IMG/VR virus record: IMGVR_UViG_2778261231_000009
Coordinates: 1-32,704 of that record
DNA: 32,704 bases
From: a virus
Lineage: Duplodnaviria > Heunggongvirae > Uroviricota > Caudoviricetes
Reading direction: 5' to 3' (one strand)
Positions 3,701-32,704 of this stretch are shown in pieces (position 1 is the stretch's first letter; each line of letters begins with the position of its first letter). A model generated the notes under the pieces. That model was not told the origin of the DNA and did not search any database. It saw nothing but the letters and a program-made list of their open reading frames with translations. Position numbers and translations under genes: made by a program.

Positions 3701-3731
3701 GCTTTTGAAGGAGAACTTACGTTACCACAAA

Positions 3732-4337: not shown

Positions 4338-5538
4338 CGATAATCTCCAGCTCTTTATTTACTTTGGCGCGACGCTTACGTGATTTGCGTTTTTTCGGAT
4401 AAGCATCCGGTATCCATATTCCATCCTCTTTGAGCCGCAGGGTGGTAATGGTGTTGTCTGGACGACCACCTGAAAACTCTCTTCCCATGAGGAAGTAAAT
4501 GTCATCAATGCCATGTGGCTCGCTTCGGACACGAATACGCTGGCCCGGTTGCCATAACTGACCGTTCTCCATGCGATGGCCTTTAACAATTACTGTCAGA
4601 TCAAACCCGTTCAGACGGGCGTCAGCCATGGCCTTTCTCGCGCGATAATCAACCTGCGCCTGATTATCAGCATCACCAGCAACCATAATCTGCGGACGAT
4701 AGAAAGGTACGGTACTGTCGCGAACGGTACTACGTAAGCCATGAAAGCCATTCTCTGCAGAGCCGGTGCTGTCATAAATTGCGTCGGCATCATCATCGTC
4801 TTCAGCCTCAGCGCTCTGATCATCAACGTCAATAACTTCCAGTCTTCCTGACTTTTTCCCCTGGCCGTGTCCCTGTGCCAGCATTGTCAGTTCAGAGAAC
4901 GCACCGGTAATGGATGACCGGTCACTGAGATCGAGGACATTATTTCCCCGACCGTCACGATTCAGAACAAGCGTGGCTACAGGGTCTTTTGTGTAATCCG
5001 GCCCTCCAATTACCAGCGTGCCATCTGGCTCAAACCATGGCCATAACCCGCGTGCAGCAGCTGCACGCTCAAGGGTATCCCACGCACGTTCTCCGGGCTC
5101 CACGCTGACCTTGTCATTACGCAGGGATGACTCAGCCTCGATGCGGATGTTCGTTATCCCCAGCGGTCTGACAACCTGGGCGATCACCTCTTCAAGACTG
5201 AGCTGGCGGGAGGTAAAAACGGGTGAAGCGCAGTCAACAAGCACGGCTGCACCATCGCGACCGGAAAGAGATAAAGAAACCTGCTGACGGGATACCCGGC
5301 GCTGAACCACATCCACCCGACCGGACATGACAACATCATTACCCACCCTGACCAGCACCGGCACACCACGTTTAATGGCCGGAGGGAAAATACCATCAGG
5401 CAGCCCAAGCGTTACGCTCCATGCATCGGAGGGGATCAGAAAATCGGAGTCAATCTGATAGCGGCTCCATGCACTATGGATTTTGCCATCAATAACCAGG
5501 CTCACTGTATTCTGCGAATCTTTATCTTGAGTAGGCAT
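4321..5538 (-). CDS. Baseplate hub protein, Mu P (gp44)-like
   Basis: 405 aa; synteny downstream of the N-like gene; start overlaps the upstream gene end. Confidence 0.8.
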   Translation of the reverse strand: MPTQDKDSQNTVSLVIDGKIHSAWSRYQIDSDFLIPSDAWSVTLGLPDGIFPPAIKRGVPVLVRVGNDVVMSGRVDVVQRRVSRQQVSLSLSGRDGAAVLVDCASPVFTSRQLSLEEVIAQVVRPLGITNIRIEAESSLRNDKVSVEPGERAWDTLERAAAARGLWPWFEPDGTLVIGGPDYTKDPVATLVLNRDGRGNNVLDLSDRSSITGAFSELTMLAQGHGQGKKSGRLEVIDVDDQSAEAEDDDDADAIYDSTGSAENGFHGLRSTVRDSTVPFYRPQIMVAGDADNQAQVDYRARKAMADARLNGFDLTVIVKGHRMENGQLWQPGQRIRVRSEPHGIDDIYFLMGREFSGGRPDNTITTLRLKEDGIWIPDAYPKKRKSRKRRAKVNKELEIIDVEQN

Positions 5539-6853: not shown

Positions 6854-9018
6854 TGCGGGCCTCCTGTTGAGCCGCGAACGGATTGTTCGCCGTTGTATTC
6901 ATTAACAGCTGATGCAATTTCACGTCCGTCTAATACCAGCTTTGTGGTGAGGTTAATTGGTTGTGATTTTTGTTGCTGCTGGGGCAGCAGATAAGACGAT
7001 ACGCCTGTGGTTGCTGGTGTGTTTTGACCCATAGTGGCCGGTGAACTCCACCATGATTTGATCTCATCCACGGCATCCAGCAATCCGGGGCGGGCTTTTA
7101 CTGCATCCAGCATGCGTGCTGACTCACTGGAATAATTGTCGACCTTGAGTCTCGCACGCGCATCAGCATCGCCTCGCTCAACATGAACGAGCGGCGCATC
7201 CTGCATGCCCTGGTAGAGTGCCAGCGGAGCAGCAACGCGCCCCAGAACTTTACCTGCACCACCCCGGATAGCGGACCAGGTGCGCCCCAGAGCAGTACCG
7301 CCAGCAGACGGAACTCCCCCTGCAGGAGAACCAGGCATTTTTATTCCGCCCCCCGTCAGGAAATTGAGCCCGGCAAAAGCTACAGCCGCTGCTGTCATGG
7401 CTTTAATGCCAGTGGTGGCACCTGCAATCGCAGTGGTTAGCCCCGGATACTCACCAGCATATTTGGTTAATTTTTCTGAAATGTCACCCAGTGCATCAGA
7501 TAAAGGGGCAATGGAATCCATTGCAGCAAAGTCCTGTTCGTTTTTTAACTGCCCAGTTTTATATCCCGGCTGTTCTGACATTAAAGCAAAGTTGATGTTA
7601 CCGGCAGTATTACCAACTGGTAAATTACGTTGTGAATTCGCCCCTGAAATTACGTCTTGGGTGTATTTTTTATTCCCTCTATACCCTAATAGAGCTAATA
7701 GCGCCTGCTGGTCAGCAATAATTTTACCTATACCAGAACCTTCAAGAATCCTTGCTTGCGAACTAATTATATTTTTACGTTCACTTTCCGGTGCTGTTTT
7801 GAGTTTATCTTCAAGTTTTTTATATGCTGGATTTGAAGCCACAATTTTATCAACAATCGTGTTAAAAGCTTCTAGAGGATTTATACCGTTACCAACAGCT
7901 TTTGCAAGACTTCCAGAGAGGTCAATTCCTTTACCGCTGGGTAGTTTAATCCGTGCTGCAGCGTTAGCAGCATCCTGACTATTCAGCTTTAGCAATAAAT
8001 TATTAAGGTTATTACCGGCCTCGTCCGGTGAACCTGATGTAATAGCTGACGCCTGGTTCCAGCCAAGCAAGACGGCAAAATCATCAAGACCTTTCATACC
8101 GACATTGCCAGCACTGGCAAGCTGCTTAGGAAGCCACTTAGCCATATCTTTCAATTCAAAAGAGCCACTTTGCCCAGCGCTAATTGCCATATTAAGTGCA
8201 GACTCAAGCTCACCGTCTTTTATGCCAAACGATTGTTTTAATTTTATGGCAATATTTGCCAAATCTTCTGGAGCTGCGCCAGTGGCTGTGGAATATTTTT
8301 GAATTAAAGGTAGCATCACCTTTGCTGACGGCATATCAACAGCCCCTGAAGCCAGCATTGTATCAAGGGTATCAGCTGCTGATTCTTTTGTTCCGCCGCC
8401 AGCACGAACAGCCTGGCGAACCATCGAATCCATCTCCACCATTCCTTTTCTGCGACCTTGCAGCCCTTCATCGGCATAAGCAGTATTGGCCATCATTGCA
8501 AGTCGCTGGCGATAGTCCATCTGTTTAGATACTGGTGTTGATAATACGGCCCCTGCAGCAGCAATCCCGCCAGCAACTGCAGCAACGCTGGAACCAGCAG
8601 CACGAAAGCGCTGCATGCGCGTCATTGAGTCATTCACGCCACCAAGTTCAGTCCGCAGCGTTTTGACCCTGTCAGTCATGGCCCTGAAAGCCCGATTCTG
8701 CTCATTCGCGGACAGCATGCCTGTGCGGGTAAGGCGGTTGTAGGCCGCCATGGTCTGCTGTATTTCACGCTGAATATCGCGCTCAGAACGAATACCAAGG
8801 GTAGATCGCGCCGAGCTGGCGCGACGGTATTCCTCAATCAGAGAACGGGAGGCACGAATCGCTGTGGTTGAGTTCTGCTGGCGGGATTTCGCCAGCTCGT
8901 CATCGGTCTTTTGCGCCGCTTTGGTATCACGGCTGATGCCCTGCAGTGCCTGCTTAAGCACTTTAGAGCCGGTATCACGGGCAAGCAGCTGCAGCGCCAG
9001 TTGTAAGTTACGCGCCAT
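6850..9018 (-). CDS. Tail tape measure protein
   Basis: 722 aa, Ala/Gly-rich with coiled-coil character, immediately downstream of the frameshifted chaperone; contains an AT-rich central segment. Confidence 0.85.
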   Translation of the reverse strand: MARNLQLALQLLARDTGSKVLKQALQGISRDTKAAQKTDDELAKSRQQNSTTAIRASRSLIEEYRRASSARSTLGIRSERDIQREIQQTMAAYNRLTRTGMLSANEQNRAFRAMTDRVKTLRTELGGVNDSMTRMQRFRAAGSSVAAVAGGIAAAGAVLSTPVSKQMDYRQRLAMMANTAYADEGLQGRRKGMVEMDSMVRQAVRAGGGTKESAADTLDTMLASGAVDMPSAKVMLPLIQKYSTATGAAPEDLANIAIKLKQSFGIKDGELESALNMAISAGQSGSFELKDMAKWLPKQLASAGNVGMKGLDDFAVLLGWNQASAITSGSPDEAGNNLNNLLLKLNSQDAANAAARIKLPSGKGIDLSGSLAKAVGNGINPLEAFNTIVDKIVASNPAYKKLEDKLKTAPESERKNIISSQARILEGSGIGKIIADQQALLALLGYRGNKKYTQDVISGANSQRNLPVGNTAGNINFALMSEQPGYKTGQLKNEQDFAAMDSIAPLSDALGDISEKLTKYAGEYPGLTTAIAGATTGIKAMTAAAVAFAGLNFLTGGGIKMPGSPAGGVPSAGGTALGRTWSAIRGGAGKVLGRVAAPLALYQGMQDAPLVHVERGDADARARLKVDNYSSESARMLDAVKARPGLLDAVDEIKSWWSSPATMGQNTPATTGVSSYLLPQQQQKSQPINLTTKLVLDGREIASAVNEYNGEQSVRGSTGGPQ

Positions 9019-9021
9019 GGA

Positions 9022-9254
9022 TTATCTCCGTTTGCCGACTTTCTTCCGGCGTTGCGATTTGACAGTGCGGGTTGTACGGGTGGTGGTTTGCCCGGTTTTC
9101 TTTCCATGTAACCGGGCAAGCGCTTCGGTGTAGCCGTCGAGTTCCGTTCGGGTCATGCTTCCTATTTGTTGTTCACTGATCCCGTATCGCCCGAGGGCAA
9201 GGACGAGGGTTCGGTACCCGGTGAGCTTTTGTTCAAATCCATCCGCTTTTTTTT
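9022..9254 (-). CDS. -1 frameshift extension of the tail assembly chaperone (G-T-like fusion product)
   Basis: From the slippery site the -1 frame stays open for about 74 codons (…ADGFEQKLTGYRTLVLALGRYGISEQQIGSMTRTELDGYTEALARLHGKKTGQTTTRTTRTVKSQRRKKVGKRR) and stops at TAA (plus 9022-9024) 3 nt before the tape-measure ATG. Hand-translated. Confidence 0.55.
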
Positions 9255-9545
9255 AATGGCTTCAATCTGAGCATCGATGAGATCGAAATCATCATCATTC
9301 AGTTCGTTAAGTAACAGCTCTGCCGTGATTTCTTCCTTCTGCAGGTCTCCGAGGGAAGTAATTGCACACGCCATCACCGCAACGCGGTAATACATGTTTG
9401 CGGCTGCACCTTCGGTAGTGCCGCAGGCTTCATCGGTTGCCCGCAGCGCTTCAATGGTATCGCTCACCACAGGCAGCCTGACGGCAAAGTCAAAATGGAC
9501 TTTATCACCGCATTTAACGCCATATAAAAGTTGCTGCTTTTCCAT
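9162..9545 (-). CDS. Tail assembly chaperone (Mu gp41 / lambda G-like), zero-frame product
   Basis: 127 aa between tail tube and tape measure; contains the A_AAA_AAG slippery run near its 3' end. Confidence 0.7.
   Translation of the reverse strand: MEKQQLLYGVKCGDKVHFDFAVRLPVVSDTIEALRATDEACGTTEGAAANMYYRVAVMACAITSLGDLQKEEITAELLLNELNDDDFDLIDAQIEAIKKKRMDLNKSSPGTEPSSLPSGDTGSVNNK
9246..9254 (-). promoter_or_regulatory. Programmed -1 ribosomal frameshift slippery site (A_AAA_AAG within an A8 run)
   Basis: Minus strand reads ATT AAA AAA AAG CGG; identical heptamer to the E. coli dnaX slippery sequence; location matches the conserved chaperone frameshift of tailed phages. Confidence 0.6.
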
Positions 9546-9920
9546 TTATTCCTCCACCCGACGAAGCGCATTCATGGTGATATCGCGCTTCGCTTCGTTG
9601 TCGACGGTATACTGAGCCCCGACCTGAGTGCTGAAACAGTCCAGGTAAGAAACACGTTTACCGCTGCTGTTAAGTGGATACAGGGTGATTTTCGCACCTT
9701 CAATACCGCCCCAGTTCAGGTCGCCGGATTCCGGGATAACTACCGTAACGGTCAGCTGGATCTCTTCAATGCCACGGGAAAAACCTTTGGCACGTCCCGT
9801 TTTGTTCATCGTCTTAACCAGCTTGCGTCCAGTGGTCACATCTTCCTTGAGGTCAGTCACTTCAATTTCCTGGCCGTCGACTTCCATGACGATCGCGCCA
9901 ACATATTCTTCAAGGGCCAT
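9546..9920 (-). CDS. Tail tube protein (Mu M / gp40-like)
   Basis: 124 aa immediately downstream of the sheath gene; size and synteny. Confidence 0.8.
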   Translation of the reverse strand: MALEEYVGAIVMEVDGQEIEVTDLKEDVTTGRKLVKTMNKTGRAKGFSRGIEEIQLTVTVVIPESGDLNWGGIEGAKITLYPLNSSGKRVSYLDCFSTQVGAQYTVDNEAKRDITMNALRRVEE

Positions 9921-9933
9921 TATGGTTTACTCC

Positions 9934-11352
9934 TCAGAGCAGCAAATCAATTCGACCGGCAAAGACGTGCAGGCCATTCACAACATCCGCAGGGATGCGA
10001 CCGTTCAGCTGGTTAACATCCTGCAGATCGCGCTCTACAATAAGTCCGTTTTTGTTGGCATCCACCTCCTCGACAATCTCCAGCTCCTCCAGCTTGTAAA
10101 GCACATCAAGCAGTTCACTGCGCACCTTCGGAGGTGTTCTTGAGCTGAGCTTGTCGCGCGGGAATCGCAGAGCGATGCGTTCACGGCAGGCCTTGCGCAC
10201 ATAGTCCAGCGTTCGGATGGTGGTGATATCCAGCAGCGCCACATCATCCACGCCCTGGGCGTTTTTGGTGTAGGTGCTGATCGCGCGAACGATTTGCACT
10301 TTGTCACCGGGGCCAATCTCAAACGGCGTAAGACCATTCCGCAGGGCGTTCTCCTGCTCAGTTCGCCCTGGCTGACTCTCTACTGCAGTCACGTCCAGCG
10401 TGCTCATCGCAAGGGTGTTCAGCGGGCGTGCCGGGTCCTCTTCACTGGCGATAACAGCAGCATAGGCAGCGGCGATCTGCGCCGGTGTTTTTACCGAACC
10501 GCTATGCCAGCCCAGCGTGATACGTCCGTCATTAAGTGAAGCTGCCAGTGCAATGCCGGTGGAAAGCGACTTGCGCCACCCACCCACACCGATTGCGCCG
10601 CGCTGTTCCATCGCATTGCTGACGTTTGTCAGATGGTTACGCAGCGCCGTCATCGCCTCCTGGGTGGAGAACGGACAAACAACAATGTTATGACCTGCTG
10701 AGAACGCCGCTGCCAGCGCTGGCGTAATATCCGGATCAACATTGCCGCCTGCAAGCGTGGTGGTCGCCGCTGTGATACCCGCTGCCGTTACGCCGGAAGA
10801 GACAATAATGTCGTTACCAACCGCCCCTTTATGGCGGCAGGTCAGGGTCACTTCCCCCGCGTTTGCTGTTGCCGTCACTGGCAACCCGTCTTTCTGGGTA
10901 ATCAGTTCCGTCAGCGCTGCCGCAATGGTCTCCGCCGTATCTGCTGCCGAAATACCGACATCAATACGGGTACCATTAATGGTCACGCTCAGCTTCCCGC
11001 CGGAAGATGCTGTGCCGGTCAGGGCGATTTTGCCCGTCGCGGCTGTTGCAGTGGCCGCATCGCTGACCCCGACGATCTGCAGCTGCAGATAGGGGTAGGC
11101 ACCGATGGCCGCTGTGGCCATCAGATGCGCCAGCGAGCCACGGCCAAAGTACGTCGCAGCTTCTTCATCAGAGAAAACAGACTGAATGACAAGCGGTGCA
11201 GACAAACCGGAGGCCAGCATTGGCGCAATCATCAGCACCTTCTGGGTGTTACCTGGCAGGGTACGAACGGCCAGGCGGGTGTTGAACTCAATATACTGAC
11301 CCGGCTTGCGGTTCGTACCGATAGTGTCAAAGCTGATATTAGGACTGCTCAC
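9934..11352 (-). CDS. Contractile tail sheath protein (Mu L / gp39-like)
   Basis: 472 aa; size, synteny and Gly/Ala/Thr-rich composition typical of sheath proteins. Confidence 0.85.
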   Translation of the reverse strand: MSSPNISFDTIGTNRKPGQYIEFNTRLAVRTLPGNTQKVLMIAPMLASGLSAPLVIQSVFSDEEAATYFGRGSLAHLMATAAIGAYPYLQLQIVGVSDAATATAATGKIALTGTASSGGKLSVTINGTRIDVGISAADTAETIAAALTELITQKDGLPVTATANAGEVTLTCRHKGAVGNDIIVSSGVTAAGITAATTTLAGGNVDPDITPALAAAFSAGHNIVVCPFSTQEAMTALRNHLTNVSNAMEQRGAIGVGGWRKSLSTGIALAASLNDGRITLGWHSGSVKTPAQIAAAYAAVIASEEDPARPLNTLAMSTLDVTAVESQPGRTEQENALRNGLTPFEIGPGDKVQIVRAISTYTKNAQGVDDVALLDITTIRTLDYVRKACRERIALRFPRDKLSSRTPPKVRSELLDVLYKLEELEIVEEVDANKNGLIVERDLQDVNQLNGRIPADVVNGLHVFAGRIDLLL

Positions 11353-11560
11353 CGTTCACCTCCGCGCTGGGCTCGCTGCTTTTGCTTTTGGTGTTCTTGT
11401 CACTGCTGGTGACAATAATCAGATCACCGGCCATTACCTGACGCTGGTAATAAGCGGTGTTCTCCACCTCAAGGGGTTCCGCATCAGTAATGTAGCGGCG
11501 CGCATTATCTTCGCGCGGCACGCTCAACCCTCTGGCGGCTTTTACTTTAATTTTGCTCAT
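11339..11560 (-). CDS. Small tail-associated protein, Mu gp38-like
   Basis: Internal start MSKIKVKAARGL… chosen from track ORF 11339..11584 to minimise overlap with the upstream gene; synteny before the sheath. Confidence 0.55.
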   Translation of the reverse strand: MSKIKVKAARGLSVPREDNARRYITDAEPLEVENTAYYQRQVMAGDLIIVTSSDKNTKSKSSEPSAEVNGEQS

Positions 11561-12206
11561 GACTGATAATGTCCTCTGCTGCATTGTCTTTATCAGGCTG
11601 CTTAAGATCGTAACTGAGTCGGGTTCTCAGCCATGCCGGGTCATCGTCGGTAGTGGCACCGCCATAAATCCGGAACATATGGTCAGCATGGTCTTCCGGC
11701 GCAGCCGTGAGCGGGTAACGCCCGTTCTCCAGCGCCGACTCAATCCACTTTGTGTCGAACTCACAGGCAAAAACGGAAAATGCCTGAGATTCTATCTGGG
11801 TGTTGAAGAGCGTGCGCACGCGACCAGGGCTGAGCGGGTCGATTTTGATACCCGTATCGGCCATATCCTGACCCGACAGCAGACGACGAACGGCGGCGAC
11901 CAGAATATACGTCCCCACCTCCTGCACATGCGGCCCCCCCATTCGGGCCGCTTCTTCACTGCGCAGGCTGCGCTCGCCAACCACCACGACAAAGCGACCG
12001 TGGGTGACAAACCGTTGCCGTGCTGTGCTGTACGGCTCGGTTTTTTGTACCCCGCCGAAGGTCACCCAGACCGCAGGGAGCTGGCGCAGCACCTCCGCAG
12101 GTTCGCCGTCCAGCTCGCCGCCGTAGGAGCGCACGTTCTTCACCATACGCCCCATACCTTTACGAAGGCGCTCCACGATGGCTTTTTCGATATCCGTAAT
12201 CACCAT
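11547..12206 (-). CDS. Head-tail joining / tail completion protein, Mu gp37 (K)-like
   Basis: 219 aa; synteny between gp36-like and gp38-like genes. Confidence 0.7.
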   Translation of the reverse strand: MVITDIEKAIVERLRKGMGRMVKNVRSYGGELDGEPAEVLRQLPAVWVTFGGVQKTEPYSTARQRFVTHGRFVVVVGERSLRSEEAARMGGPHVQEVGTYILVAAVRRLLSGQDMADTGIKIDPLSPGRVRTLFNTQIESQAFSVFACEFDTKWIESALENGRYPLTAAPEDHADHMFRIYGGATTDDDPAWLRTRLSYDLKQPDKDNAAEDIISHEQN

Positions 12207-23701: not shown

Positions 23702-24200
23702 AGTTGTCAAACTGTACAACAAACTGATCTTTCTCTTCACTGTACCATTTCACTGTATATGAAAACACTCTATCAGAAACAGTCAAGTTACAGTGTCTCA
23801 CTGCATTAACCCGGTCATAACTCATTTGCGCGGGCTCAGAGAATTTTTCTCCATTCAGCAACTCTGTAAGAACAGAATGGACATCGGATGAATCACAGCC
23901 AGGTAAATCACCTTTGTAAAAATTAATCACTGGGGCAATAAATGCTAAAATGAACATCAGGACATAAACTGATAAGGGGCTAACATTTTTTCCGCCCTGG
24001 ACACTACTGGCATCATCCGAGTCTGATAATGCACTTCCGATTAATTTTTTTCTTTTAAATAGATACAATGGAATGACAATGAAGAATATGAATGCTGAAC
24101 CAATCCCCCAACGGGCAGGTCTTGCAATGTTATTGGTGATAGCATCTTTGTAAACAGCAACAGAAGCACCGAATATAATTAAAGCAATTAAAAACTCCAT
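23700..24200 (-). CDS. AT-rich moron: three-helix membrane protein with ~70-aa C-terminal soluble domain, unknown function
   Basis: 166 aa; hydrophobic segments at roughly residues 2-17, 32-48 and 75-95; region visibly AT-rich versus flanks (estimated by eye at high-30s % GC against mid-50s); occupies the slot between the Mor/C-like gene and the lysis cassette. Confidence 0.7.
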   Translation of the reverse strand: MEFLIALIIFGASVAVYKDAITNNIARPARWGIGSAFIFFIVIPLYLFKRKKLIGSALSDSDDASSVQGGKNVSPLSVYVLMFILAFIAPVINFYKGDLPGCDSSDVHSVLTELLNGEKFSEPAQMSYDRVNAVRHCNLTVSDRVFSYTVKWYSEEKDQFVVQFDN

Positions 24201-24213
24201 GTATATTACCTTT

Positions 24214-24648
24214 TTAAAAAAGTTCTTGTTGATTGATTGATGTGTTTTGTCTGTGCTGGCTTAGTAACTGCCATCCAAAACGATCGCTGAATCCATACTT
24301 AGGGCAAAGAAAGGTCATGGCCATAAGAGAGGATGAACCTTGTTCACGCACTTCGGCGAACTCGGCGAGAAAGCGGCGGTTGCGTAATTCACGAAGGGCA
24401 CGATCACAGCGCGGTAAATAGAGAACTTCTCCGCCGAAATTCTTGATGAGTAATTGGGTTTTATCATCGCCGATAGTATTGCGCAGGAGGGCTGCGCGGC
24501 TGGCCCCCATAGCGCGGAGGCCTTTACCTATCGGGAACGTGGTGCCACCAAAAGCAGAAAGAAGCTGCTCGGTCGCCGGGAAGCCTATCAGGTCAGCTAT
24601 TTGAATCACTGCTGATGGCAGCAGCTCCGTTACCTGTTCCAGATTCAT
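24214..24648 (-). CDS. Mor/C-family transcriptional activator
   Basis: Internal start MNLEQVTELLP…; GGEVLYLPRC… and the basic C-terminal half resemble Mu Mor/C; overlaps the 3' end of the GemA-like gene. Confidence 0.7.
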   Translation of the reverse strand: MNLEQVTELLPSAVIQIADLIGFPATEQLLSAFGGTTFPIGKGLRAMGASRAALLRNTIGDDKTQLLIKNFGGEVLYLPRCDRALRELRNRRFLAEFAEVREQGSSSLMAMTFLCPKYGFSDRFGWQLLSQHRQNTSINQQELF

Positions 24649-25069
24649 TATTACGCTCCCGCTTTTTTCGCCGACTCGCATCAATGCTGAGAGCCTGCAT
24701 GAGTTTGGTTAACTGTTCAGTCGTCAACCACTCGATGTATTTGACGTGAAACATATGATCGCACATTTTCTCGGCATAATTCCACGGACGTTTTGCATCT
24801 GCAAGTAATGCGTTAATTTTAGAAAGAATTGACTCGCGCGTATTGGCAACCTTTGGGCGTCGACCGTGTTTTACTGAGTAGCGAGGAAAACCCTTGTCAT
24901 GCATATATTCCATGACAGCCTGCAGCTCGTCGAGGGTGCATTTAGTGGATGATGTTTTACCGTTGCATAAGCGAGACAGAACACTACGGTAGGTTACCTC
25001 ATCCCACCCCAGATATGCCTGACCGGCTTTAATTGCCCCTATAAGGCCTCGTTTTGCTGGCGTGGACAT
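24593..25069 (-). CDS. GemA-like regulatory protein (Mu gp16, DUF1018-type)
   Basis: Internal start MSTPAKRGLIGAIKAGQAYLGWDEVTYRSVL… preceded by a GGAG Shine-Dalgarno; matches the N-terminal pattern of GemA-family proteins. Confidence 0.7.
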   Translation of the reverse strand: MSTPAKRGLIGAIKAGQAYLGWDEVTYRSVLSRLCNGKTSSTKCTLDELQAVMEYMHDKGFPRYSVKHGRRPKVANTRESILSKINALLADAKRPWNYAEKMCDHMFHVKYIEWLTTEQLTKLMQALSIDASRRKKRERNNESGTGNGAAAISSDSNS

Positions 25070-25136
25070 AATATTTCTCCTGTTGGTTGTCATTATCGCA
25101 GGCACTTTATGAAGTGCCTGCTGTAATGACTTACTT

Positions 25137-25346
25137 TCAAGGTTTCATTTTGCTGACTGATATACCACCGATTTTCCCTTCGACCCTGACAACCAGACGA
25201 CCATTGCGCATATGCCAGGCTGCCGGGCGGGTTATTACAGTTTCCCGCTCCGATACACCAGGTGTCAGGTAATAATGGAACTGTGAGTCAACGGGGAAGC
25301 GCTGGTTAAAGGTCTTTGCTGTCAGATTTCTCAGGAGATGTCCCAT
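25137..25346 (-). CDS. Hypothetical small protein (69 aa)
   Basis: Internal start MGHLLRNL… with a strong GGAGG Shine-Dalgarno about 8 nt upstream; no recognisable domain. Confidence 0.45.
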   Translation of the reverse strand: MGHLLRNLTAKTFNQRFPVDSQFHYYLTPGVSERETVITRPAAWHMRNGRLVVRVEGKIGGISVSKMKP

Positions 25347-25524
25347 AGTTTTCCTCCAGATTCGCATCGGTGGCAATAATGCTTAATGGCCATAAGAGAA
25401 AGGCAAACCAGTAATTCTGGCGGGATAAATTAGCTAATCCCACTAATCGGGCCAGAATGCATATCCAGCACCAGCCAAGTGTTAAATACATCGCCAGCAA
25501 TATGATAATGAAAGCTATATCCAT
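25306..25524 (-). CDS. Small two-helix membrane protein (about 72 aa)
   Basis: Hydrophobic IAFIIILLAMYLTLGWCWICILARLVGL and YWFAFLLWPLSII; ATG overlaps the upstream stop; overlaps the next ORF by about 40 nt, so one of the two may be mis-called. Confidence 0.4.
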   Translation of the reverse strand: MDIAFIIILLAMYLTLGWCWICILARLVGLANLSRQNYWFAFLLWPLSIIATDANLEENYGTSPEKSDSKDL

Positions 25525-25739
25525 CACTTTATCCCCCGAAGTTTCTTGAAAGATTCAATCGCCTTCTTCATATCAGCCTGAGTCCCCTTATTGCGTACCT
25601 TACGGTTACTGGCGTCGTAATAGTTGAACCGCAGCTTAAGTGGCACCGCCAGCAACTCGACAACCTGGCTGTTATCGCGGAAGAACCAGATTCGGCGGTT
25701 ACCGTTATCCTGGAACTGGCAGCCCGTTACGCTATGCAT
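25524..25739 (-). CDS. Hypothetical small protein (71 aa), basic C-terminus
   Basis: Start overlaps the end of the DUF4406-like gene; no recognisable domain. Confidence 0.45.
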   Translation of the reverse strand: MHSVTGCQFQDNGNRRIWFFRDNSQVVELLAVPLKLRFNYYDASNRKVRNKGTQADMKKAIESFKKLRGIK

Positions 25740-26106
25740 AACTCACCTCCGTTAATGGGTGACGCTTACGGTGGATCGCAATCGACACGCTTTCCCAGTC
25801 CTGGTAAAGGAACAGCAGCCCTAGCTCACAGGCGCGATCAAACTCCCTGGTAGCGCCGGTGCTCTTTTCCCACCCGTTCAGCAGGAATACCGCATCAGCC
25901 TGCTCAAGCATGGACAATGTAATTTGCAGGTACTGCTCATGCTGCAGGCCGTCTGGAAGAATGGCCGGGTTGAGAACGGTGAAGCCGCGCTCTTCCAGGA
26001 TGCGAGCCTCAGCGTTGAATTCATCGCGGTTAAAGTTGTGATACCCGGTCATTGGACCGGCAATGAAAACCACTGGCTTACGCTCAGAATGTTTATTTAT
26101 ATTCAT
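25732..26106 (-). CDS. DUF4406-type protein (nucleoside 2-deoxyribosyltransferase-like fold)
   Basis: Internal start MNINKHSERKPVVFIAGPMTGY… with a GAGG Shine-Dalgarno; the KPVVFIAGPMTG…FNR…E…VLNP pattern is characteristic of this family. Confidence 0.6.
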   Translation of the reverse strand: MNINKHSERKPVVFIAGPMTGYHNFNRDEFNAEARILEERGFTVLNPAILPDGLQHEQYLQITLSMLEQADAVFLLNGWEKSTGATREFDRACELGLLFLYQDWESVSIAIHRKRHPLTEVSYA

Positions 26107-26272
26107 CAGAGAAACCTCACATGATTTTTCCAGCGGTTCTGTGCAGCGCTGCGTTTCTTCTTGTCGCACCACTCGTTGCCAGGCCGGGGTATCGTTGATG
26201 GCCAGCCTGTCATCGCTTTACGGTTACTGAATTTGAAAGGCATGCGCAGCAGTCTTCTTACTTTGCGGTTTG

Positions 26273-26533
26273 TCATTTGGCATCCGCCTCAGAGCGAAAC
26301 ATCATGATTGTCAGAGCGCCCTTTGTGGCAAGACGAACGGTTGTTCCGGGCTCAATGCTCTGCAGATCGAAAGCGTCGTACAACTCATCAACAGCCTTCT
26401 GGCGACGTGATGCCTTGCGGTGTTTATCCCACGATTTCAGGACAACAGATGTAAACCACTTACCGGCCTGGACCATGATGAATAGCCAACCCATGAAGGC
26501 GAGTCCGGTATTCAAAATTTCGGTGATGGTCAT
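26273..26533 (-). CDS. Small membrane protein (about 86 aa)
   Basis: Internal start MTITEILNTGLAFMGWLFIMVQAG… with GGGAG upstream; one transmembrane helix then a basic tail. Confidence 0.45.
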   Translation of the reverse strand: MTITEILNTGLAFMGWLFIMVQAGKWFTSVVLKSWDKHRKASRRQKAVDELYDAFDLQSIEPGTTVRLATKGALTIMMFRSEADAK

Positions 26534-26537
26534 TTCT

Positions 26538-26783
26538 CTATTCATCTCCCTGGTCGAACAAGATTCGCGAGTAACCCGCATTGGTAGATACTTCCAGCCA
26601 TCCATCACACCGTTCACCGGTTCTGAGATTTATCACCCGAGAATGCTGGTATTGAGAGCCTCGGATGTCTTCCAGTTCATCATCGCTGAAAAACATCGGC
26701 TCTCCGCAGTGAGGGCAGTAGCATCCGTAATCACCATCAGCGCGCCCAATTTTGTTAACTATGAGAATTTCGTTGGTAGCCAT
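26538..26783 (-). CDS. Small Cys-containing protein (C-x-C-x2-C … C), possible zinc-binding
   Basis: Internal start MATNEILIVNK… preceded by a strong AAGGAG Shine-Dalgarno; cysteines at GCYCPHCGEP and ERCDGW. Confidence 0.5.
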   Translation of the reverse strand: MATNEILIVNKIGRADGDYGCYCPHCGEPMFFSDDELEDIRGSQYQHSRVINLRTGERCDGWLEVSTNAGYSRILFDQGDE

Positions 26784-26784
26784 A

Positions 26785-27132
26785 TCACTCTCCTTTACCG
26801 GCAGCGGCAGCGCGTTCTGCGTCATACAGCCATGCATCAATCGGATTCAATGAGTTTTCGATTGGTGCCCCTCCTGATTGATACATCAGCTGCTTTGCAC
26901 GTAAAAACAGCTCGTTCACAGCTTCCAGCTCATCCAGCTGCGCCAGCACATTAGGGTCACTAACATCAACAACCGTTAGCGCGTTGGCACGAGCAAACTG
27001 GACATCAAGCGCTGTTGCCAGATTGCGAACCAGCGCGGCACACTCAGCGCAATGTAGTTCTTTCGCCAGCGCATGCCCGGCTGCTACGAGTTCTTTGACT
27101 GGCGTAGTTTCCAGTTGAGGCGAGATTTTCAT
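26785..27132 (-). CDS. Hypothetical protein (about 115 aa)
   Basis: Internal start MKISPQLETTPVKEL… with GGAG upstream; ATG overlaps the upstream stop. Confidence 0.5.
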   Translation of the reverse strand: MKISPQLETTPVKELVAAGHALAKELHCAECAALVRNLATALDVQFARANALTVVDVSDPNVLAQLDELEAVNELFLRAKQLMYQSGGAPIENSLNPIDAWLYDAERAAAAGKGE

Positions 27133-27848
27133 TTTGTCACTCCAATCTGTTCGCATTTATTAGCTGAACTGCTTACCGCGTGATGCAGCTGCGCATTGCG
27201 GCCAGCCAGATATCCCTCGTTTTCCGCCTTATCCGTTCCCCTGGCTTTGCCGGGTTTGCGCGGTTCCAGCTTTTTCATGCCTTCGCTTAATTTCCTGCTG
27301 CGGTAACACTCCATCAGCGTTGTCTCCGCCTCCGTAACAGCGAAATCACTGACAACGGCATAAGCACCGTTGACCCAGGCGGAACAGAAGGTATCGGCGC
27401 GGGCAACTTTTGTGGCCTGTTTGATGTTCTTGCGTAATGTGGAGAGGTAATCACGGCGGGCTTTCGCCAGTTGCTTACCCAGAACTTCGAATGAATATGC
27501 CGCTATCTGAGGGCGTTCGTCGGGGCCGTAATAGTGTATGGTGCGTTTTGCTGGCTTGCCCCACTGCTCAGCGCCATGGCTGGTGTAAAACTTCACGCCA
27601 AAAACGCGCGCGACCATCTCTGCCAGTATTGCCATATATTCCGGCATCTTCTCAGCATGAGAGGGGGCCTTCTGGGTAGAAGCTTCATTGATATCCATCA
27701 AATCAGCATCAGCCTCAGTCAGTTTGTGGGTTTCCATCAGGCGCTGAGCGCGGCTAAGGGCAAGTGCGGCTTCTTCGGCGCTGGAGTTATTACGCGCCAT
27801 CGCGAGCAGCTTTTTAATTCTCTGGATATATTTCTCTTTATTTTCCAT
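27129..27848 (-). CDS. DUF2786-type protein
   Basis: 239 aa; N-terminal …YIQRIKKLLAMARNNSSAEEAALALSRAQRLM… is the characteristic DUF2786 signature; AAGGAG Shine-Dalgarno. Confidence 0.7.
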   Translation of the reverse strand: MENKEKYIQRIKKLLAMARNNSSAEEAALALSRAQRLMETHKLTEADADLMDINEASTQKAPSHAEKMPEYMAILAEMVARVFGVKFYTSHGAEQWGKPAKRTIHYYGPDERPQIAAYSFEVLGKQLAKARRDYLSTLRKNIKQATKVARADTFCSAWVNGAYAVVSDFAVTEAETTLMECYRSRKLSEGMKKLEPRKPGKARGTDKAENEGYLAGRNAQLHHAVSSSANKCEQIGVTK

Positions 27849-27928
27849 TACAGAACTCCTTAATTCAGGCGTAAGCCACCCCCGGCAGGTTTACGCCATA
27901 TTTAAAACAGGTTTAATTAAAAGTTATT

Positions 27929-28120
27929 TCAGCCAGCAGGTATCAGCGATTTAATATTGGCGAAATAAGGTTCCTGATTTATTTCAACTACCGATACATC
28001 GCGGCAGTCGCGAGCCAGATCAACGGTGCTGACGACCTTACCACCACGTAAAACCGGATTCGGCTGATAAATAAAGACGCTACCAACCGGATATTTTTGG
28101 TTGAACTCTTTAGCTTTCAT
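27929..28120 (-). CDS. Hypothetical small protein (about 63 aa)
   Basis: Internal start MKAKEFNQKYPVGSVFIYQ…; no recognisable domain. Confidence 0.4.
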   Translation of the reverse strand: MKAKEFNQKYPVGSVFIYQPNPVLRGGKVVSTVDLARDCRDVSVVEINQEPYFANIKSLIPAG

Positions 28121-28334
28121 CCGAAATCCCCCAGCCGCGAGTAGCCGCGTTCGCGCAGAACTCCAGTCGACGAGTGGCCCAGAATCGACCGGAAGTGCCA
28201 CGAGCAAACATCAACGCTTTACCCCATAATTCAGCAGCCCTGGAATATTCGCCATTACGTTCGGCACGAATCGCGCCGGTGGCATAGCATCCGTAGTTGT
28301 TGCGAGCTGAATTTTCTTTAATCTTTCCAGACAT
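28110..28334 (-). CDS. Small protein (about 74 aa), possibly ANR-family regulator-like
   Basis: Internal start MSGKIKENS…; the pattern …RAERNGEYSRAAELWGKAL…RFWATRRLEFC… is, from memory, similar to small ANR-family proteins; unverified. Confidence 0.4.
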   Translation of the reverse strand: MSGKIKENSARNNYGCYATGAIRAERNGEYSRAAELWGKALMFARGTSGRFWATRRLEFCANAATRGWGISDES

Positions 28335-28335
28335 A

Positions 28336-28986
28336 TCACACCCCTGCACCTGCAATATCGAGGGCAATCGGACGATATTCATCCGAATCACCAACACGCT
28401 CATACACGCGGATATAAGAACGGCTACCGACGACCTGCACAGCCTCACCGATGGCCTGCATGGCTTGCTGCCAGCGATCATCATCAATTTCCAGACGACG
28501 AAGTGCCAGAACACGCCCGGTATTGATATTGCCTTCTTTGTCAGTATCAAACGCCTCATTGACCAGCGCCTTCAGCTCAGGACGGGCACCTTCTGTCCAG
28601 TCAGCGAGGCAGGTATCAATAAGCGCCTTTGCAGTCTGAATCCGCTCGTCCAGGGCGATTCGGTCCTGCATGGCTCGCTGGATTTTGAAACGGCCATCAA
28701 AGCTGTAGAGCGTGACATTACCTTTTTTACCGCCTTTGATGGCCCCGTATTTCTCCGCTGAAAGGTCGATAAATGCCTGAATATCAGCAAAGGCGCGTGA
28801 TTTCAGCTCACTCAGGGCAGAGGAAACGATAATCGCCTGCGTAACGAGTTCGCCAACGAGCTGGTCGCGGTCGCGGTCGATTTCTTTAATCAGACTGACA
28901 GGCGTCAGAACGCCGCGAGCATCAGTCCAGTATCCCTCTGGTGCCTGGGTGGTAGTGTATTGTTTGATGGTGTTTTCAGTGGACAT
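28336..28986 (-). CDS. DUF3164-type protein
   Basis: Internal start MSTENTIKQY…; 216 aa; resembles the DUF3164 family seen in early regions of transposable phages (recalled, not searched). Confidence 0.6.
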   Translation of the reverse strand: MSTENTIKQYTTTQAPEGYWTDARGVLTPVSLIKEIDRDRDQLVGELVTQAIIVSSALSELKSRAFADIQAFIDLSAEKYGAIKGGKKGNVTLYSFDGRFKIQRAMQDRIALDERIQTAKALIDTCLADWTEGARPELKALVNEAFDTDKEGNINTGRVLALRRLEIDDDRWQQAMQAIGEAVQVVGSRSYIRVYERVGDSDEYRPIALDIAGAGV

Positions 28987-29167
28987 TGGACTTCCCCTTT
29001 TTCTGAATTGCATGACGGATTTTTTCGTTAACATGGCCAGCCAGGCCATATCCCACAGTGGCTGCGACTTTCTGAGTCAGTTCACTGTCTTTGTCATCCG
29101 GAACAACCTGGCACTCCACACGGATACCGCGCGGTGCATCGGTTATGCTGATTACGACTTTTGCCAC
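28976..29167 (-). CDS. Hypothetical small protein (63 aa)
   Basis: ORF with overlapping neighbours in an operon-like array; no recognisable domain. Confidence 0.4.
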   Translation of the reverse strand: MAKVVISITDAPRGIRVECQVVPDDKDSELTQKVAATVGYGLAGHVNEKIRHAIQKKGKSNVH

Positions 29168-29179
29168 TTATTTTCTCCT

Positions 29180-29458
29180 TCAATGAATAGATTCTGACCA
29201 TACGACACGACAGCCGTCCTGGATGAAAAGGCCCTGGCGGTATTTACCCGATTTCCCCTGGCCATATTCGATGTAGCTGGCTTTACCGCTGCTGAGCAGG
29301 TAATCACACATGGCATGGCGCTGAATACGAATGACCGGCTGACCTTCCCGAACCACGATACCTTTCACTTCCACGCCACGGGCCTGGAGGGAAACGACGA
29401 CAGCTTCGGTACGATACAGCGCTGAAACCAGCGAGTTATCTGATGTTAAAGTCAGCAT
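29180..29458 (-). CDS. Hypothetical protein (92 aa) at the position of Mu kil (first gene after B)
   Basis: Position only; no sequence resemblance to a known family recognised. Confidence 0.45.
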   Translation of the reverse strand: MLTLTSDNSLVSALYRTEAVVVSLQARGVEVKGIVVREGQPVIRIQRHAMCDYLLSSGKASYIEYGQGKSGKYRQGLFIQDGCRVVWSESIH

Positions 29459-29478
29459 AAAACCTCCTTAAATCCGGA

Positions 29479-30372
29479 TTAATGGATCAGCATTTCAGCT
29501 ATCTGGTTGACGATATGACCGCTGACCGGAACATCATTCATCGCGCTGGTGCGGACCGCACCGCGCAGCAGCTTGAACAATCGGCGGGCGTTACCTTTTG
29601 ACGCATTGAACAGCGCTTTGCTCAGGTCTTCATTCAGGCCATCCGGGAGAACGCTGCTGGCGATGACGTCAATATCAGCACCCGGCAGGCTATGCCCGAG
29701 GTTGAGGGCGAAACCGACACGGCTATAGAGCTGTACGAGCTCACCGCGTTTGCCCTTGAGGTTCAGAATCAGGCGAGGCATACCAACCAGGACGATGCCG
29801 ATCCCCGTTTTGTCATGGATGCGGCGGATAGATTCCAGCGCACGCAGAGGGAGGTTCTCGGCTTCATCAATAATCAGCACGCGTCCGGAGTCGCGCAGCT
29901 TGTTGATGCAGGCCTCGCTGAGTTCGTGCATATTGCCGCGCGTACTGAGCCCCAGCAGGTTACAGAGCTCTTCCAGGACTACCCGTGCGGTGTAGCCAGG
30001 GTCTGCCTCAATCAGCAACGCATCCCGGTATTTGGAGACGTAGGCTTTGCAAATCATCGTCTTGCCCAGACCGGCTTCGCCGTAGAGCACGTTGATATCA
30101 CCTTCGACGTGTGCCATGCGTATAACATCAACGGCTTTGCGCGTTGTTGGGGTATCAACAAATTTGACGCTGATACGTGCCGAACGTTCTTTTTCATGCT
30201 GACGATCGATAAAGCTACGAATATCGTTTTCCAGCGATACAATATCGCCGTCGTATTTATTATTCAGATACTGGCTGATTACGGCCGAGCTCTTACCAAT
30301 GGCGCGGGCGACCTGTGTCTGGTTAAGACCTTTTGCTTTCATCAGTTCGACAAGTTCATTTTTAGCTGACAT
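29479..30372 (-). CDS. B: Transposition ATPase / target DNA activator (Mu B-like, AAA+)
   Basis: 297 aa; N-terminal HTH-like region (LNQTQVARAIGKSSAVISQYLNNKY), Walker A GEAGLGKT, Walker B-like VLIIDEAE; directly downstream of the transposase. Confidence 0.85.
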   Translation of the reverse strand: MSAKNELVELMKAKGLNQTQVARAIGKSSAVISQYLNNKYDGDIVSLENDIRSFIDRQHEKERSARISVKFVDTPTTRKAVDVIRMAHVEGDINVLYGEAGLGKTMICKAYVSKYRDALLIEADPGYTARVVLEELCNLLGLSTRGNMHELSEACINKLRDSGRVLIIDEAENLPLRALESIRRIHDKTGIGIVLVGMPRLILNLKGKRGELVQLYSRVGFALNLGHSLPGADIDVIASSVLPDGLNEDLSKALFNASKGNARRLFKLLRGAVRTSAMNDVPVSGHIVNQIAEMLIH

Positions 30373-30417
30373 AATTACTTCCTCTGTTTTAGTAAATCAG
30401 CGGCCTGTGATGTCCAG

Positions 30418-32475
30418 TCAGAAGGTCGCTTTTTTATTGCCCTGACTTTTCAGCCATTCTTCACGCTCTGATTCGAACAGGAACACATGTTCCCGAGCAT
30501 CATTAATACGCTCTGCGTCCGATGGTATTAATGCGCCGAAATCAGGGTACATATCGCTTTCAGGAAGCAGGCCTCTTGCCTCTGCTTCAATCTCTTCCCG
30601 TTGTTCGTCGATGCGCTTCAGACGACGCTGGCGACGTTTCTCAACGGCGATATCCATCATGCTGGTTGGCAGCGCGGCACGCTTATTGCCGTTCCAGATG
30701 GCGGTGCAGACATAAGTACCGTCCATGCGACGAACGATGACGGCAGCAGGGTCGTGAATGTCATAGGCGACCCGGACTTCCTCACCGTCGACCTGTATCA
30801 GGTCAGCGCTGAAATACTGGTTATTCATCAGGTCAATCCAGCCCCGCTGGGCGGTGCGGCACATTTCCGGCATGAAGGCTTCACGAAGCTCGATATCCGT
30901 CAGATATTCAATATCGTCACCCTCAGTGGCCAGAACCTCGCGGCGGTACTGTGCTGGCGTCATATGCACACCATTACGTTTTGGTAGCTCGCTGTGCTCA
31001 TGCAGGTTGTTGTATTTGTCGACTTCCTCAGCAATGGTATCCAGCAGCATCTGCCACGACGGCAATTTACGCAGCGCGTTACGCTGTACGCTCGTGAGTT
31101 CGCGCCCATTCTCCTGAGCCTTAATCGCTGACTGGATAGCGCGACCGGTCATCCGCACATGCTCACGGTCGGCCCCGAATCCATTGTAAGTATCAAATTT
31201 ATTGGCAATCGCTCTCGGTATTACGGCGTTCAGTCGTTCGATAATCCCGCGTGACTGCGGTCGACCCGGAATACTGGTCGGGTGATCAATACCCATGCGA
31301 GTGAAAATACCGGTGATATCAGCATCCAGCGTTTTATTGGTTTCACCGCCACCGTTATCCGAATAGACAAAAAGAGGTTTTCCGTGGAATTTCATGGCGT
31401 AGCGATAGGCATCCGCTACGGCGATGACGTTCTCTGAGAGCGCCAGGCTCCAGCCCACCAGGTAGCGGGTGCGGCCATCGATAACCAGCGTCAGTTCAGG
31501 TGTGAATGGACGACCATGGACCGGATGAGCAACTTTCATATCCAGCGATTTACCATCCGCAATCCAGCAACCATTTACTGGCATTTGTGACCAGTCACGC
31601 TTCTGATAAACCTCATAAGCCAGAGCCGCTGAACCGCTGATACGGCCGCGAGCGCGTTCACGTTTTGGTAGCTTTTCCATCGCCCGACGCACGGCATCAT
31701 AAGACGGACAGACGGCGAGCATCGCTGGCTGTCCCGCATAAATAGCCTGCCATTCAGTCTTGAATGAGCGCCACGCATCCACCAGAGAAGGGCCTGAGAG
31801 TTTCCGCCAGTGGGCGAGAAAATCAGGGAGCCACTTAATCTGCTCAGGCTTACGCGCTTTAAGATGGCCTGGTGCCAGCAAAGCCAGGCGTTCGATACCT
31901 GGACGTGTAGAAAGGTAAACAGACAGCCATTCCTGAAGTGTTCTTTCGCCCACGCCACGACGGCTGGAACCTTTACGCGCATTGGCAATATCAGCCGCAG
32001 CCTGGATGTTTTCCGGCAACGTGCCCTTGCGTGACTCTTTGGCGATGAACTCAACCGCCGATGCGCGTGACATACCGATATCCCGAAGACGCTCAACCTC
32101 TGCGGCTAATAATGCGCGGGCGTCGGCGATCTGTTTCTGGCGTTCGGTAAGGTCAGAGACCTCACGCTCCAGCAATACCGGGCACTGCCGCAATAACGTC
32201 AGTTCGTCGCGGGTCGTGGTGACTTCCCGCTTTGGTGCAGTCGGCGCTGATGAACAATCAGACTGTTTCAGCACCTCGCGATAATGCCGGGCTTTGACTA
32301 TTTCACGCGCCTGTTCAGGCAGGCAGTCGATGTGGTACTCGAATGCTTTGCTGCCAGCACGTTTGCGAACCAGTTCAGGGGAGTTGCCTGCACTTTTTTT
32401 AAGGCTGTATCGCAGTCCTTGTTGTGTTGTTGGCAGTCCAGGGACGCCAACTAATTCGTTAACAGTCACGAACAT
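30418..32475 (-). CDS. A: DDE transposase (Mu A-like)
   Basis: 685 aa; N-terminal DNA-binding region, central integrase-like catalytic core; resembles MuA; ATG overlaps the ner stop. Confidence 0.9.
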   Translation of the reverse strand: MFVTVNELVGVPGLPTTQQGLRYSLKKSAGNSPELVRKRAGSKAFEYHIDCLPEQAREIVKARHYREVLKQSDCSSAPTAPKREVTTTRDELTLLRQCPVLLEREVSDLTERQKQIADARALLAAEVERLRDIGMSRASAVEFIAKESRKGTLPENIQAAADIANARKGSSRRGVGERTLQEWLSVYLSTRPGIERLALLAPGHLKARKPEQIKWLPDFLAHWRKLSGPSLVDAWRSFKTEWQAIYAGQPAMLAVCPSYDAVRRAMEKLPKRERARGRISGSAALAYEVYQKRDWSQMPVNGCWIADGKSLDMKVAHPVHGRPFTPELTLVIDGRTRYLVGWSLALSENVIAVADAYRYAMKFHGKPLFVYSDNGGGETNKTLDADITGIFTRMGIDHPTSIPGRPQSRGIIERLNAVIPRAIANKFDTYNGFGADREHVRMTGRAIQSAIKAQENGRELTSVQRNALRKLPSWQMLLDTIAEEVDKYNNLHEHSELPKRNGVHMTPAQYRREVLATEGDDIEYLTDIELREAFMPEMCRTAQRGWIDLMNNQYFSADLIQVDGEEVRVAYDIHDPAAVIVRRMDGTYVCTAIWNGNKRAALPTSMMDIAVEKRRQRRLKRIDEQREEIEAEARGLLPESDMYPDFGALIPSDAERINDAREHVFLFESEREEWLKSQGNKKATF

Positions 32476-32476
32476 G

Positions 32477-32704
32477 TCACAGGTCCTTGTTGTAACGGCT
32501 TGGCCAGATACTGGCGGGTTCTAAATTGAGAGCATTTGCAATAATGCGCTCTCCTTTTGGATAAGAGCGTGCCAGCGCATTTTTCAGCGTGTCGGGTTTT
32601 AGTCCCGCGCTGGCGGAAAGGCCGCGCATAGTGACGCCACGCTTGTGCAGCTCGGCGACAATATCAATGCGATGCCAGTCACGCTGTACTTCATTTATTT
32701 CCAT
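32477..32704 (-). CDS. ner: Ner-like DNA-binding regulator
   Basis: 75 aa, same length as Mu Ner, with shared …RDWHR-D…L-K…GLS…TL-NAL-R--PKGE-IIANAL…IWPSRY… pattern; its ATG is the last three bases of the window. Confidence 0.85.
   Translation of the reverse strand: MEINEVQRDWHRIDIVAELHKRGVTMRGLSASAGLKPDTLKNALARSYPKGERIIANALNLEPASIWPSRYNKDL

Follow-up and report, generated by a model that had tools for sequence, protein, structure and literature searches.

The window, meaning the whole 32,704 nt stretch of phage DNA that was analysed, belongs to a Mu-like transposable prophage, the early operon of which encodes no Gam. Among the loci fetched for comparison, DUF3164 and Gam are mutually exclusive alternatives, and in phages closely related to each other one or the other fills a single slot. 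The reading we favour, with confidence and doubt evenly balanced, is that of a Gam-less early operon encoding a diverged Kil, a diverged gp7 and DUF3164, the last being the likeliest source of the Gam function.

Mu Gam is a Ku-like protein that binds double-stranded DNA ends and blocks RecBCD, and it is used both as a double-strand-break marker and as a genome-editing additive. One study regards Gam as close to a core gene among transposable phages (PMC8705779); its supplements do not indicate which gene of B3 was counted as Gam. DUF3164 was left uncharacterised by a 2026 study that applied AlphaFold and Foldseek to it (PMC13637380), and neither a link to Gam nor any function for the family was found in the searchable literature. 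The either/or distribution and the clean exchange of cassettes described below turn this “unknown” family into the subject of a single specific hypothesis. If true, DUF3164 would add a third, unrelated phage route to neutralising host exonuclease, the survival of Gam-less Mu-like phages would be explained, and database names for DUF3164 such as “sulfate transporter” could be corrected.

A Mu-like early operon without Gam

The genes downstream of B make up the promoter-distal end of the early operon, known as the semi-essential region, in a Mu-like transposable prophage. Pfam places Ner, MuA and MuB upstream of this region, and GemA and Mor downstream; hence the window contains, in order, Ner, MuA (with DDE and Mu C-terminal domains), MuB (AAA+), GemA and Mor, the series by which a Mu-like transposable phage was recognised, and an annotated E. 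coli relative has the identical order. All of the genes described here are on the minus strand. The ner-like early regulator (32477..32704; PF13693 HTH_35, 6e-28) is 56% identical to Mu Ner, and its start codon is the final three bases of the window. It is followed by the MuA-type DDE transposase (30418..32475; Mu-transpos_C, HTH_Tnp_Mu_1 and rve domains) and the MuB-type AAA+ target-DNA activator (29479..30372; AAA_22, 7.5e-23, with an N-terminal HTH), the latter being 28% identical to Mu B (E 1e-20). The far boundary of the semi-essential region is GemA, of the gp16 family (24593..25105; PF06252, 9.5e-20), and the Mor-family middle-operon activator lies beyond it (24214..24684; PF08765, 1.8e-8). 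The early region is probably a single transcript from ner through A and B; a scan of 24000-30500 for promoters and terminators returned sites no more numerous than those in shuffled sequence.

The nearest phage transposases to that of the window are from Klebsiella phages (64-68% identity), with 68% identity to the transposase of ST405-OXA48phi1.1, and no close match to the window at the DNA level was found among deposited phages. The window is an ordinary member of a common prophage group, and its gene layout is already known and common, as in B3 and BcepMu.

The six ORFs that the original prediction placed downstream of B are all present in the positions it gave them. Shine-Dalgarno-like motifs precede the ORF starts, most clearly those of the 92-aa, 63-aa, DUF3164 and DUF2786 genes, and homologues of each of the six were found by at least one of PHROGs, a protein database search and jackhmmer on the fetched loci. 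The semi-essential region reaches past the segment covered by that prediction, as far as GemA at 25105, and no Gam was found in this additional stretch either.

No ORF in the window is detectably related to Gam/Ku by sequence, profile or fold. Gam was not found by Pfam in any early ORF at E<=1, by PHROGs among the early ORFs, by tblastn of the window with Mu Gam, or by jackhmmer; when all six frames of the window were scanned with a Gam HMM, narrower than that of Pfam, nothing was returned either, the best in-region match having E=7. When the 14 early ORF families of the window were compared with Gam by hhalign, all had Prob <=1.5%. The claim that nothing downstream of B resembles Gam has therefore withstood each of these methods, including the Gam/Ku profile searches that had been proposed as its check, which found no divergent Gam.

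Small ORFs and other genes downstream of B

The first gene after B (29180..29458), beginning 21 bp past the end of B, encodes a 92-aa protein that is, on remote-homology statistics, a strongly diverged relative of Kil (hhalign Prob 85%; direct HMM E-values of 6.5e-3 to 0.15). The hhalign match to the Mu Kil family (P 6e-6 in local mode, 8.8e-7 in global mode) was the best of 196 window-versus-Mu family pairs, with eight control families all at <=9.3%. It aligned residues 10-88 of the ORF with residues 1-74 of Mu Kil, which is to say end to end, and a C-terminal GC(R/Q)(V/I)(V/I)W is common to both proteins. A jackhmmer profile started from Mu Kil reached the ORF at E 6.5e-3 in a set of 39,220 ORFs, and a bridging member of the 92-aa family (L204) at E 1.8e-6, while the PHROG Kil family, phrog_2743, matched at E 0.15 (residues 18-87 to profile positions 10-74 of 75). 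In the 80 DUF3164 loci, the gene just upstream of DUF3164 belongs to the 92-aa family in 36 and to the Kil family in 41, with a single ORF matching both profiles. A word-indexed search for homologues of the ORF returned 15 close relatives only. In a fold search with its AlphaFold2 model (pLDDT 89.5), Mu Kil was not among the matches listed, the best of which was a 105-aa myovirus protein (TM 0.80) that is uncharacterised.

Like Mu Kil (gp5), the 92-aa protein is small, basic and encoded directly after B; unlike it, the protein has an extra ~18 residues with a predicted beta-strand, and is assigned by PHROGs to a separate family, phrog_2041, the identity between the two being ~21-25%. By analogy, it would presumably act on host cell division or shape. 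The original prediction had seen no Kil homologue in this region, while allowing that profile searches might reveal a divergent one, and this is what such searches found.

The second gene after B (28976..29167) encodes a 63-aa protein that is a diverged form of Mu gp7 (E6), remotely related to it. The hhalign match between the two (Prob 74%, P 2.7e-5, residues 1-54 to 1-63) was the second-best of the same 196 comparisons, and their N-termini read MAKVVISITD and MAKVIIEIKN respectively. DUF3164 is the third gene. Beyond it lie a 74-aa ANR-family (AraC negative regulator) protein (28110..28334; NCBIfam NF033650, 4.9e-18; phrog_2227), the E. coli orthologue of which is likewise annotated as ANR-family, and another 63-aa protein (27929..28120; phrog_5591, 1.6e-27), which is a paralogue of the 25137-25376 product (BLASTP: 36% identity, E 9e-7).

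The last of the six ORFs (27129..27848; phrog_421) encodes a 239-aa protein combining DUF2786 (PF10979; 4.8e-11, score 42.9 against a gathering threshold of 23.9) with DUF7168 (PF23771; 2.3e-27, score 95.8 against 25.5), in agreement with its earlier description as DUF2786-like, and no relative of it was found among solved structures. DUF2786 is present in 42 of the DUF3164 loci, but also in nine Gam loci. Hence it is ruled out as a Gam substitute, and its earlier grouping with DUF3164 as a stand-in does not hold.

The rest of the semi-essential region (25137..27156) was annotated from Pfam and PHROG matches. It comprises a 123-aa ORF (26785-27156), a zinc-ribbon ORF (26538-26840), a DUF4752 ORF (26273-26617), a DUF4406 nucleoside-deoxyribosyltransferase-like gene (25732-26172) and three small ORFs (25524-25739, 25306-25527 and 25137-25376), all with mechanical coordinates, such that the true starts may be further in. 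None of these ORFs resembled Gam by hhalign (Prob <=1.4%).

DUF3164 and Gam as alternatives

The DUF3164 gene (28336..28986; phrog_846) encodes a protein of 216 aa. The mechanical ORF extends over 28336-29049, but the start is most likely at 28986; the product translated from there and a 216-aa database protein are identical throughout. PF11363 matches over profile positions 1-193 of 194 (4e-82; 275 bits against a cut-off of 23.7), in line with the assignment first made by eye. The AlphaFold2 model (pLDDT 93.5) begins with a long N-terminal helix, after which comes a mixed alpha/beta part; neither a Ku-like core fold, as in PDB 2p2u, nor a recognisable DNA-binding fold was found in it, and Foldseek against BFVD gave only weak matches to uncharacterised phage proteins of 124-178 aa. 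The DUF3164 profile aligned to Gam at an hhalign Prob of 0.2%, ten diverse DUF3164 proteins did not match the Gam PHROGs (phrog_491/2205/18351) even at E<=10, and ten longer DUF3164 proteins had no second Pfam domain.

Gam and DUF3164 were found together in none of the 86 DUF3164 and 130 Gam loci fetched, both sets being biased towards close relatives (at least 63% identity to the window's DUF3164, and at least 64% to Mu Gam, respectively). A jackhmmer search started from Gam matched in 0/80 DUF3164 loci, whereas the same loci yielded GemA in 72/80 and Mor in 71/80. DUF3164 itself was in all 80 and in no Gam locus, a distribution matched by none of the other early ORF families tested. With the HMMER filters off, Gam was likewise not found in the early regions of B3, BcepMu, a Vibrio phage and a Shewanella phage, in each of which DUF3164 is present. 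Gam-less roseophages also carry DUF3164, and the protein has been detected in purified-phage preparations (PMC5488378).

The alternation is clearest between the Pseudomonas phages Ab30 and D3112, which are 95.7% identical over Ab30 1139-7629 and 96.6% identical over 8230-11817. The difference is confined to the segment between, in which D3112 has gam and ~280 bp downstream of it, and Ab30 has DUF3164 as its ORF13; the products flanking the swap are 99% (orf12) and 94% (orf14) identical. Ab30 is a viable, lysogenising phage (PMC4482731). Thirteen further contigs with an orf14 homologue had Gam (10/13) or DUF3164 (3/13), with none having both and none neither. Hence the slot holds one or the other in 15/15 of these Casadabanvirus relatives, and is never empty nor filled by a third gene. 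A looser second case of replacement is provided by Mannheimia phage 3927AP2, which has DUF3164, and Haemophilus phage SuMu, which has Gam: their A proteins are 65% and their B proteins 55% identical, and the adjacent small genes are homologous but differ in order. The small genes around the slot occur in freely shuffled combinations in both types of early region, with Gam and with DUF3164.

A possible role for DUF3164

We infer from the replacement of gam by DUF3164 that the two would be equivalent in function. DUF3164 would then shield linear phage DNA from host exonuclease (RecBCD), either post-injection or in the lytic cycle, and might do so by acting on DNA ends, as Mu Gam does, or on the nuclease itself, as lambda Gam does. 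The acidity of DUF3164 proteins (pI 4.9-6.0, against 7.8 for Mu Gam) leans weakly towards nuclease binding. More generally, and with confidence falling somewhat short of even, we propose that DUF3164 proteins form a novel class of phage-encoded DNA-end protectors or RecBCD inhibitors, structurally unrelated, as far as can be detected, to Mu Gam/Ku and lambda Gam; that they have taken the place of Gam on more than one occasion among transposable phages; and that they are the standard solution in B3/BcepMu-type lineages. The idea from which this work began, that unrelated proteins take over the Gam and Kil roles, thus gains support for Gam, through the exclusivity of DUF3164 and its use of the same slot, but fails for Kil, a divergent form of which is present.

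Alternatively, early regions might be inherited in two types, or the slot might be a variable one for counter-defence, with the same pattern arising in phages that simply manage without Gam. DUF3164 would then have another job, as an accessory to transposition or replication or in counter-defence not directed at RecBCD, which we regard as possible but rather doubtful. Mu gam is dispensable and forms part of the semi-essential region, itself dispensable, so its loss without replacement is conceivable. The acidity of DUF3164, and the lack of a recognisable DNA-binding fold in it, likewise count against a Gam-like role. Counter-defence genes with different targets also replace each other positionally, such that alternatives in a slot could be non-equivalent, and the free shuffling of adjacent small genes between the two types would suit this explanation. 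So would the position of DUF3164 in phiKM1, beside an ‘integrase’ and with an HNH/terminase packaging module, as this phage may not be transposable, and the lack of a fold or sequence link between DUF3164 and any end-binding protein or nuclease inhibitor. However, this does not sit easily with a slot that is always filled by one of the two genes in the Casadabanvirus relatives, nor with the complete lack of co-occurrence across >200 loci. Furthermore, conservation of the family is high, with ~1,400 representatives at 50% identity, and its members are reported beside DDE transposase and ATPase genes as far off as Bacteroidetes prophages (PMC7761591), whereas counter-defence cargo typically turns over fast.

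It is unlikely that the Gam function is supplied by another early ORF, such as the DUF2786/DUF7168 gene or the 123-aa ORF, or by a gene beyond the window. Several early ORFs are of unknown function, and the repressor side of the prophage lies outside the window, which ends at the ner start codon. Yet 0/14 ORF families resemble Gam, among the early ORF families tested only DUF3164 has the distribution described above, DUF2786 accompanies Gam itself in nine loci, and jackhmmer found no Gam in the locus of a related E. coli prophage, in which the left end is included. That DUF3164 is a genuine homologue of Gam/Ku that has diverged to an extreme degree, rather than a displacement of it, is very improbable given the profile and fold comparisons, despite a comparable size and genomic position and a superficially similar layout of a long N-terminal helix and then a mixed alpha/beta part.

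The early region of the window is most similar to that of phages of the B3/BcepMu type (Pseudomonas B3, Burkholderia BcepMu, Shewanella MuM16-2 and Mannheimia 3927AP2). These share the order A, B, small genes, DUF3164, in some cases further small genes, DUF2786+DUF7168 and, later, GemA and Mor; their DUF3164 proteins are 45-68% identical, and Gam was found in none of them. The window differs in having A and B genes of Mu/SuMu rather than B3 type, next to which lies Ner. Relative to Mu Gam (PF07352), DUF3164 has the same early-operon position, a similar size and the same slot in sister phages, but no similarity in sequence, profile or fold, and is acidic where Gam is near neutral, its Gam-like activity being putative. 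Lambda Gam, a DNA mimic that binds RecBCD, offers a possible analogy for the means by which an acidic, helix-rich small protein might block RecBCD without binding DNA.

Gene content of the early region

The window contains a Mu-like prophage coded on the minus strand, in which ner (32477-32704) is followed by the MuA transposase (30418-32475), MuB (29479-30372) and then, beyond a series of short early genes, by GemA (24593-25105), Mor (24214-24684) and a GH19 endolysin. No deposited phage proved close to the window in a DNA-level search; a related prophage of matching gene order lies in an E. coli chromosome, and the layout belongs to a common type that has been sequenced before, of which the window is an ordinary member.

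The six ORFs originally listed after B hold at their coordinates, and have Shine-Dalgarno-like motifs ahead of their starts, clearest for the 92-aa (29180-29458), 63-aa (28976-29167), DUF3164 (28336-28986) and DUF2786 (27129-27848) genes. Pfam agreed with both domain assignments, matching DUF3164 at 4e-82 and adding DUF7168 to DUF2786. The DUF3164 start is most likely 28986; the resulting 216-aa product is identical to a database protein of equal length. NCBI and UniRef records name that protein “sulfate transporter”, and several homologues from Photorhabdus and Xenorhabdus bear the same label; almost certainly, a wrong name has been copied from record to record.

Other minus-strand genes of this early region include an ANR-family (AraC negative regulator) small protein (28110-28334; NCBIfam 4.9e-18), which has relatives in Gam-type and DUF3164-type loci alike and could interfere with host AraC-family regulators. 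The ORFs at 27929-28120 and 25137-25376 are paralogues (36% identity, E 9e-7) with a common FNQ(K/R)(Y/F)PV motif, and their family is the most widespread among the small early genes, with 105 matches in the fetched comparison loci. A DUF4406, nucleoside 2-deoxyribosyltransferase-like protein (25732-26172; Pfam 3e-27, phrog_355 1.3e-35) may be involved in nucleotide modification or influence the nucleotide pool.

Searches for Gam and Kil

The original prediction that this region has neither Gam nor Kil was right for Gam, but wrong for Kil. Gam had no match among the early ORFs in Pfam at E<=1 or in PHROGs, nor did tblastn with Mu Gam, or a six-frame scan with the Gam HMM, detect it anywhere in the window. 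A jackhmmer search begun with Mu Gam and run on about 39,000 six-frame ORFs from the fetched loci recovered 130 Gams, none in the window or the E. coli relative, whose locus takes in the left prophage end; in profile-profile comparisons of 14 window ORF families with Gam, Prob never exceeded 1.5%. Within the reach of these methods, Gam is missing from the window. The only sub-threshold HMM match (9162-9545, minus strand; E 0.019, 9.8 bits) lies among tail genes, adjoining a tape-measure-sized ORF, and we take it as chance. Nor is DUF3164 a hidden Gam: its deep alignment, of 116 sequences that mostly share 36-60% identity with the window protein, scored Prob 0.2% against Gam, and ten diverse DUF3164 proteins matched phrog_846, an uncharacterised family, and nothing else.

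The 92-aa ORF starts 21 bp past the end of B, and has weak, full-length matches to two PHROGs, that of Mu Kil (E 0.15) and that of the gene directly following B in phage B3 (E 0.069). From Mu Kil, jackhmmer converged on 157 ORFs, one per locus; among these, an unambiguous 92-aa family member scored 1.8e-6, and the search extended to the window ORF (6.5e-3). The two families aligned end to end in hhalign (Prob 85%; P 6e-6 local, 8.8e-7 global), with a common C-terminal GC(R/Q)(V/I)(V/I)W, whereas eight other small Mu families reached at most 9.3%. This was the top pair of 196 between window and Mu families; the second was the 63-aa ORF with Mu gp7 (Prob 74%, P 2.7e-5). Immediately upstream of DUF3164 in 80 viral contigs, the slot held the 92-aa family in 36 and the Kil family in 41. 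Mu Kil was not among the folds retrieved from BFVD with a good 92-aa model. Judged by these profiles, the 92-aa ORF is a remote Kil homologue, and Kil is not missing; the 63-aa ORF is a remote homologue of gp7.

Distribution and exchange of Gam and DUF3164

Gam is held to be a near-core gene of transposable phages (PMC8705779). Across the fetched loci, DUF3164 occurred in 86 and Gam in 130, with no overlap. The early region is covered in the DUF3164 loci, since 72 of 80 contain GemA and 71 Mor. B3, BcepMu, a Vibrio phage and Shewanella MuM16-2 each have DUF3164, and no Gam, in the early region. DUF2786 is not the substitute, because it was found in nine Gam loci.

The strongest result for DUF3164 as a Gam replacement comes from two Pseudomonas Casadabanvirus phages, Ab30 and D3112, which share 95.7% identity on one side of a single segment and 96.6% on the other (flanking proteins 99% and 94%). 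Within it, D3112 has gam and about 280 bp downstream, whereas Ab30, which forms plaques and lysogens (PMC4482731), has only DUF3164. Thirteen further contigs with the same downstream gene carried either Gam (10) or DUF3164 (3), never both or neither. A second, looser case pairs Mannheimia 3927AP2 (DUF3164) with Haemophilus SuMu (Gam), in which A is 65% and B 55% identical, and several neighbouring genes are homologous in a different order.

Two deposited annotations need care. The 266-aa “gam” CDS of D3112 (locus L218, 7567-8367) seems to reflect a fusion or a frameshift in the annotation, as in relatives the Gam ORF spans about 170-180 codons and a separate variable stretch follows it. In SuMu, the 63-aa SuMu_6 (locus L233, 4928-5119) is labelled “Gam” without matching the Gam profile, and is 61% identical to a small 3927AP2 gene; SuMu_8 is the real Gam.

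A candidate role for DUF3164

DUF3164 also occurs in roseophages without Gam, and was detected in purified-phage preparations (PMC5488378); in Bacteroidetes prophages it likewise lies near transposase and ATPase genes (PMC7761591). It was still uncharacterised in a 2026 study (PMC13637380), and no link to Gam was found in the literature searched, subscription journals being outside its coverage. The main rival explanation is that the slot houses non-equivalent alternatives, such as counter-defence genes with different targets, Gam being simply dispensable. The gene identities, lack of a Gam homologue, remote Kil and gp7 homology, mutual exclusivity and slot replacement are shown; the comparative pattern singles out DUF3164 as the putative replacement, which would protect against host exonuclease. 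This specific proposal, of a non-homologous stand-in for Gam, is worth pursuing. DUF3164 proteins are acidic (pI 4.9-6.0, against 7.8 for Mu Gam) and show no recognisable DNA-binding fold, and we therefore lean weakly towards a protein that would bind the nuclease, as lambda Gam does, over one that would cap DNA ends.
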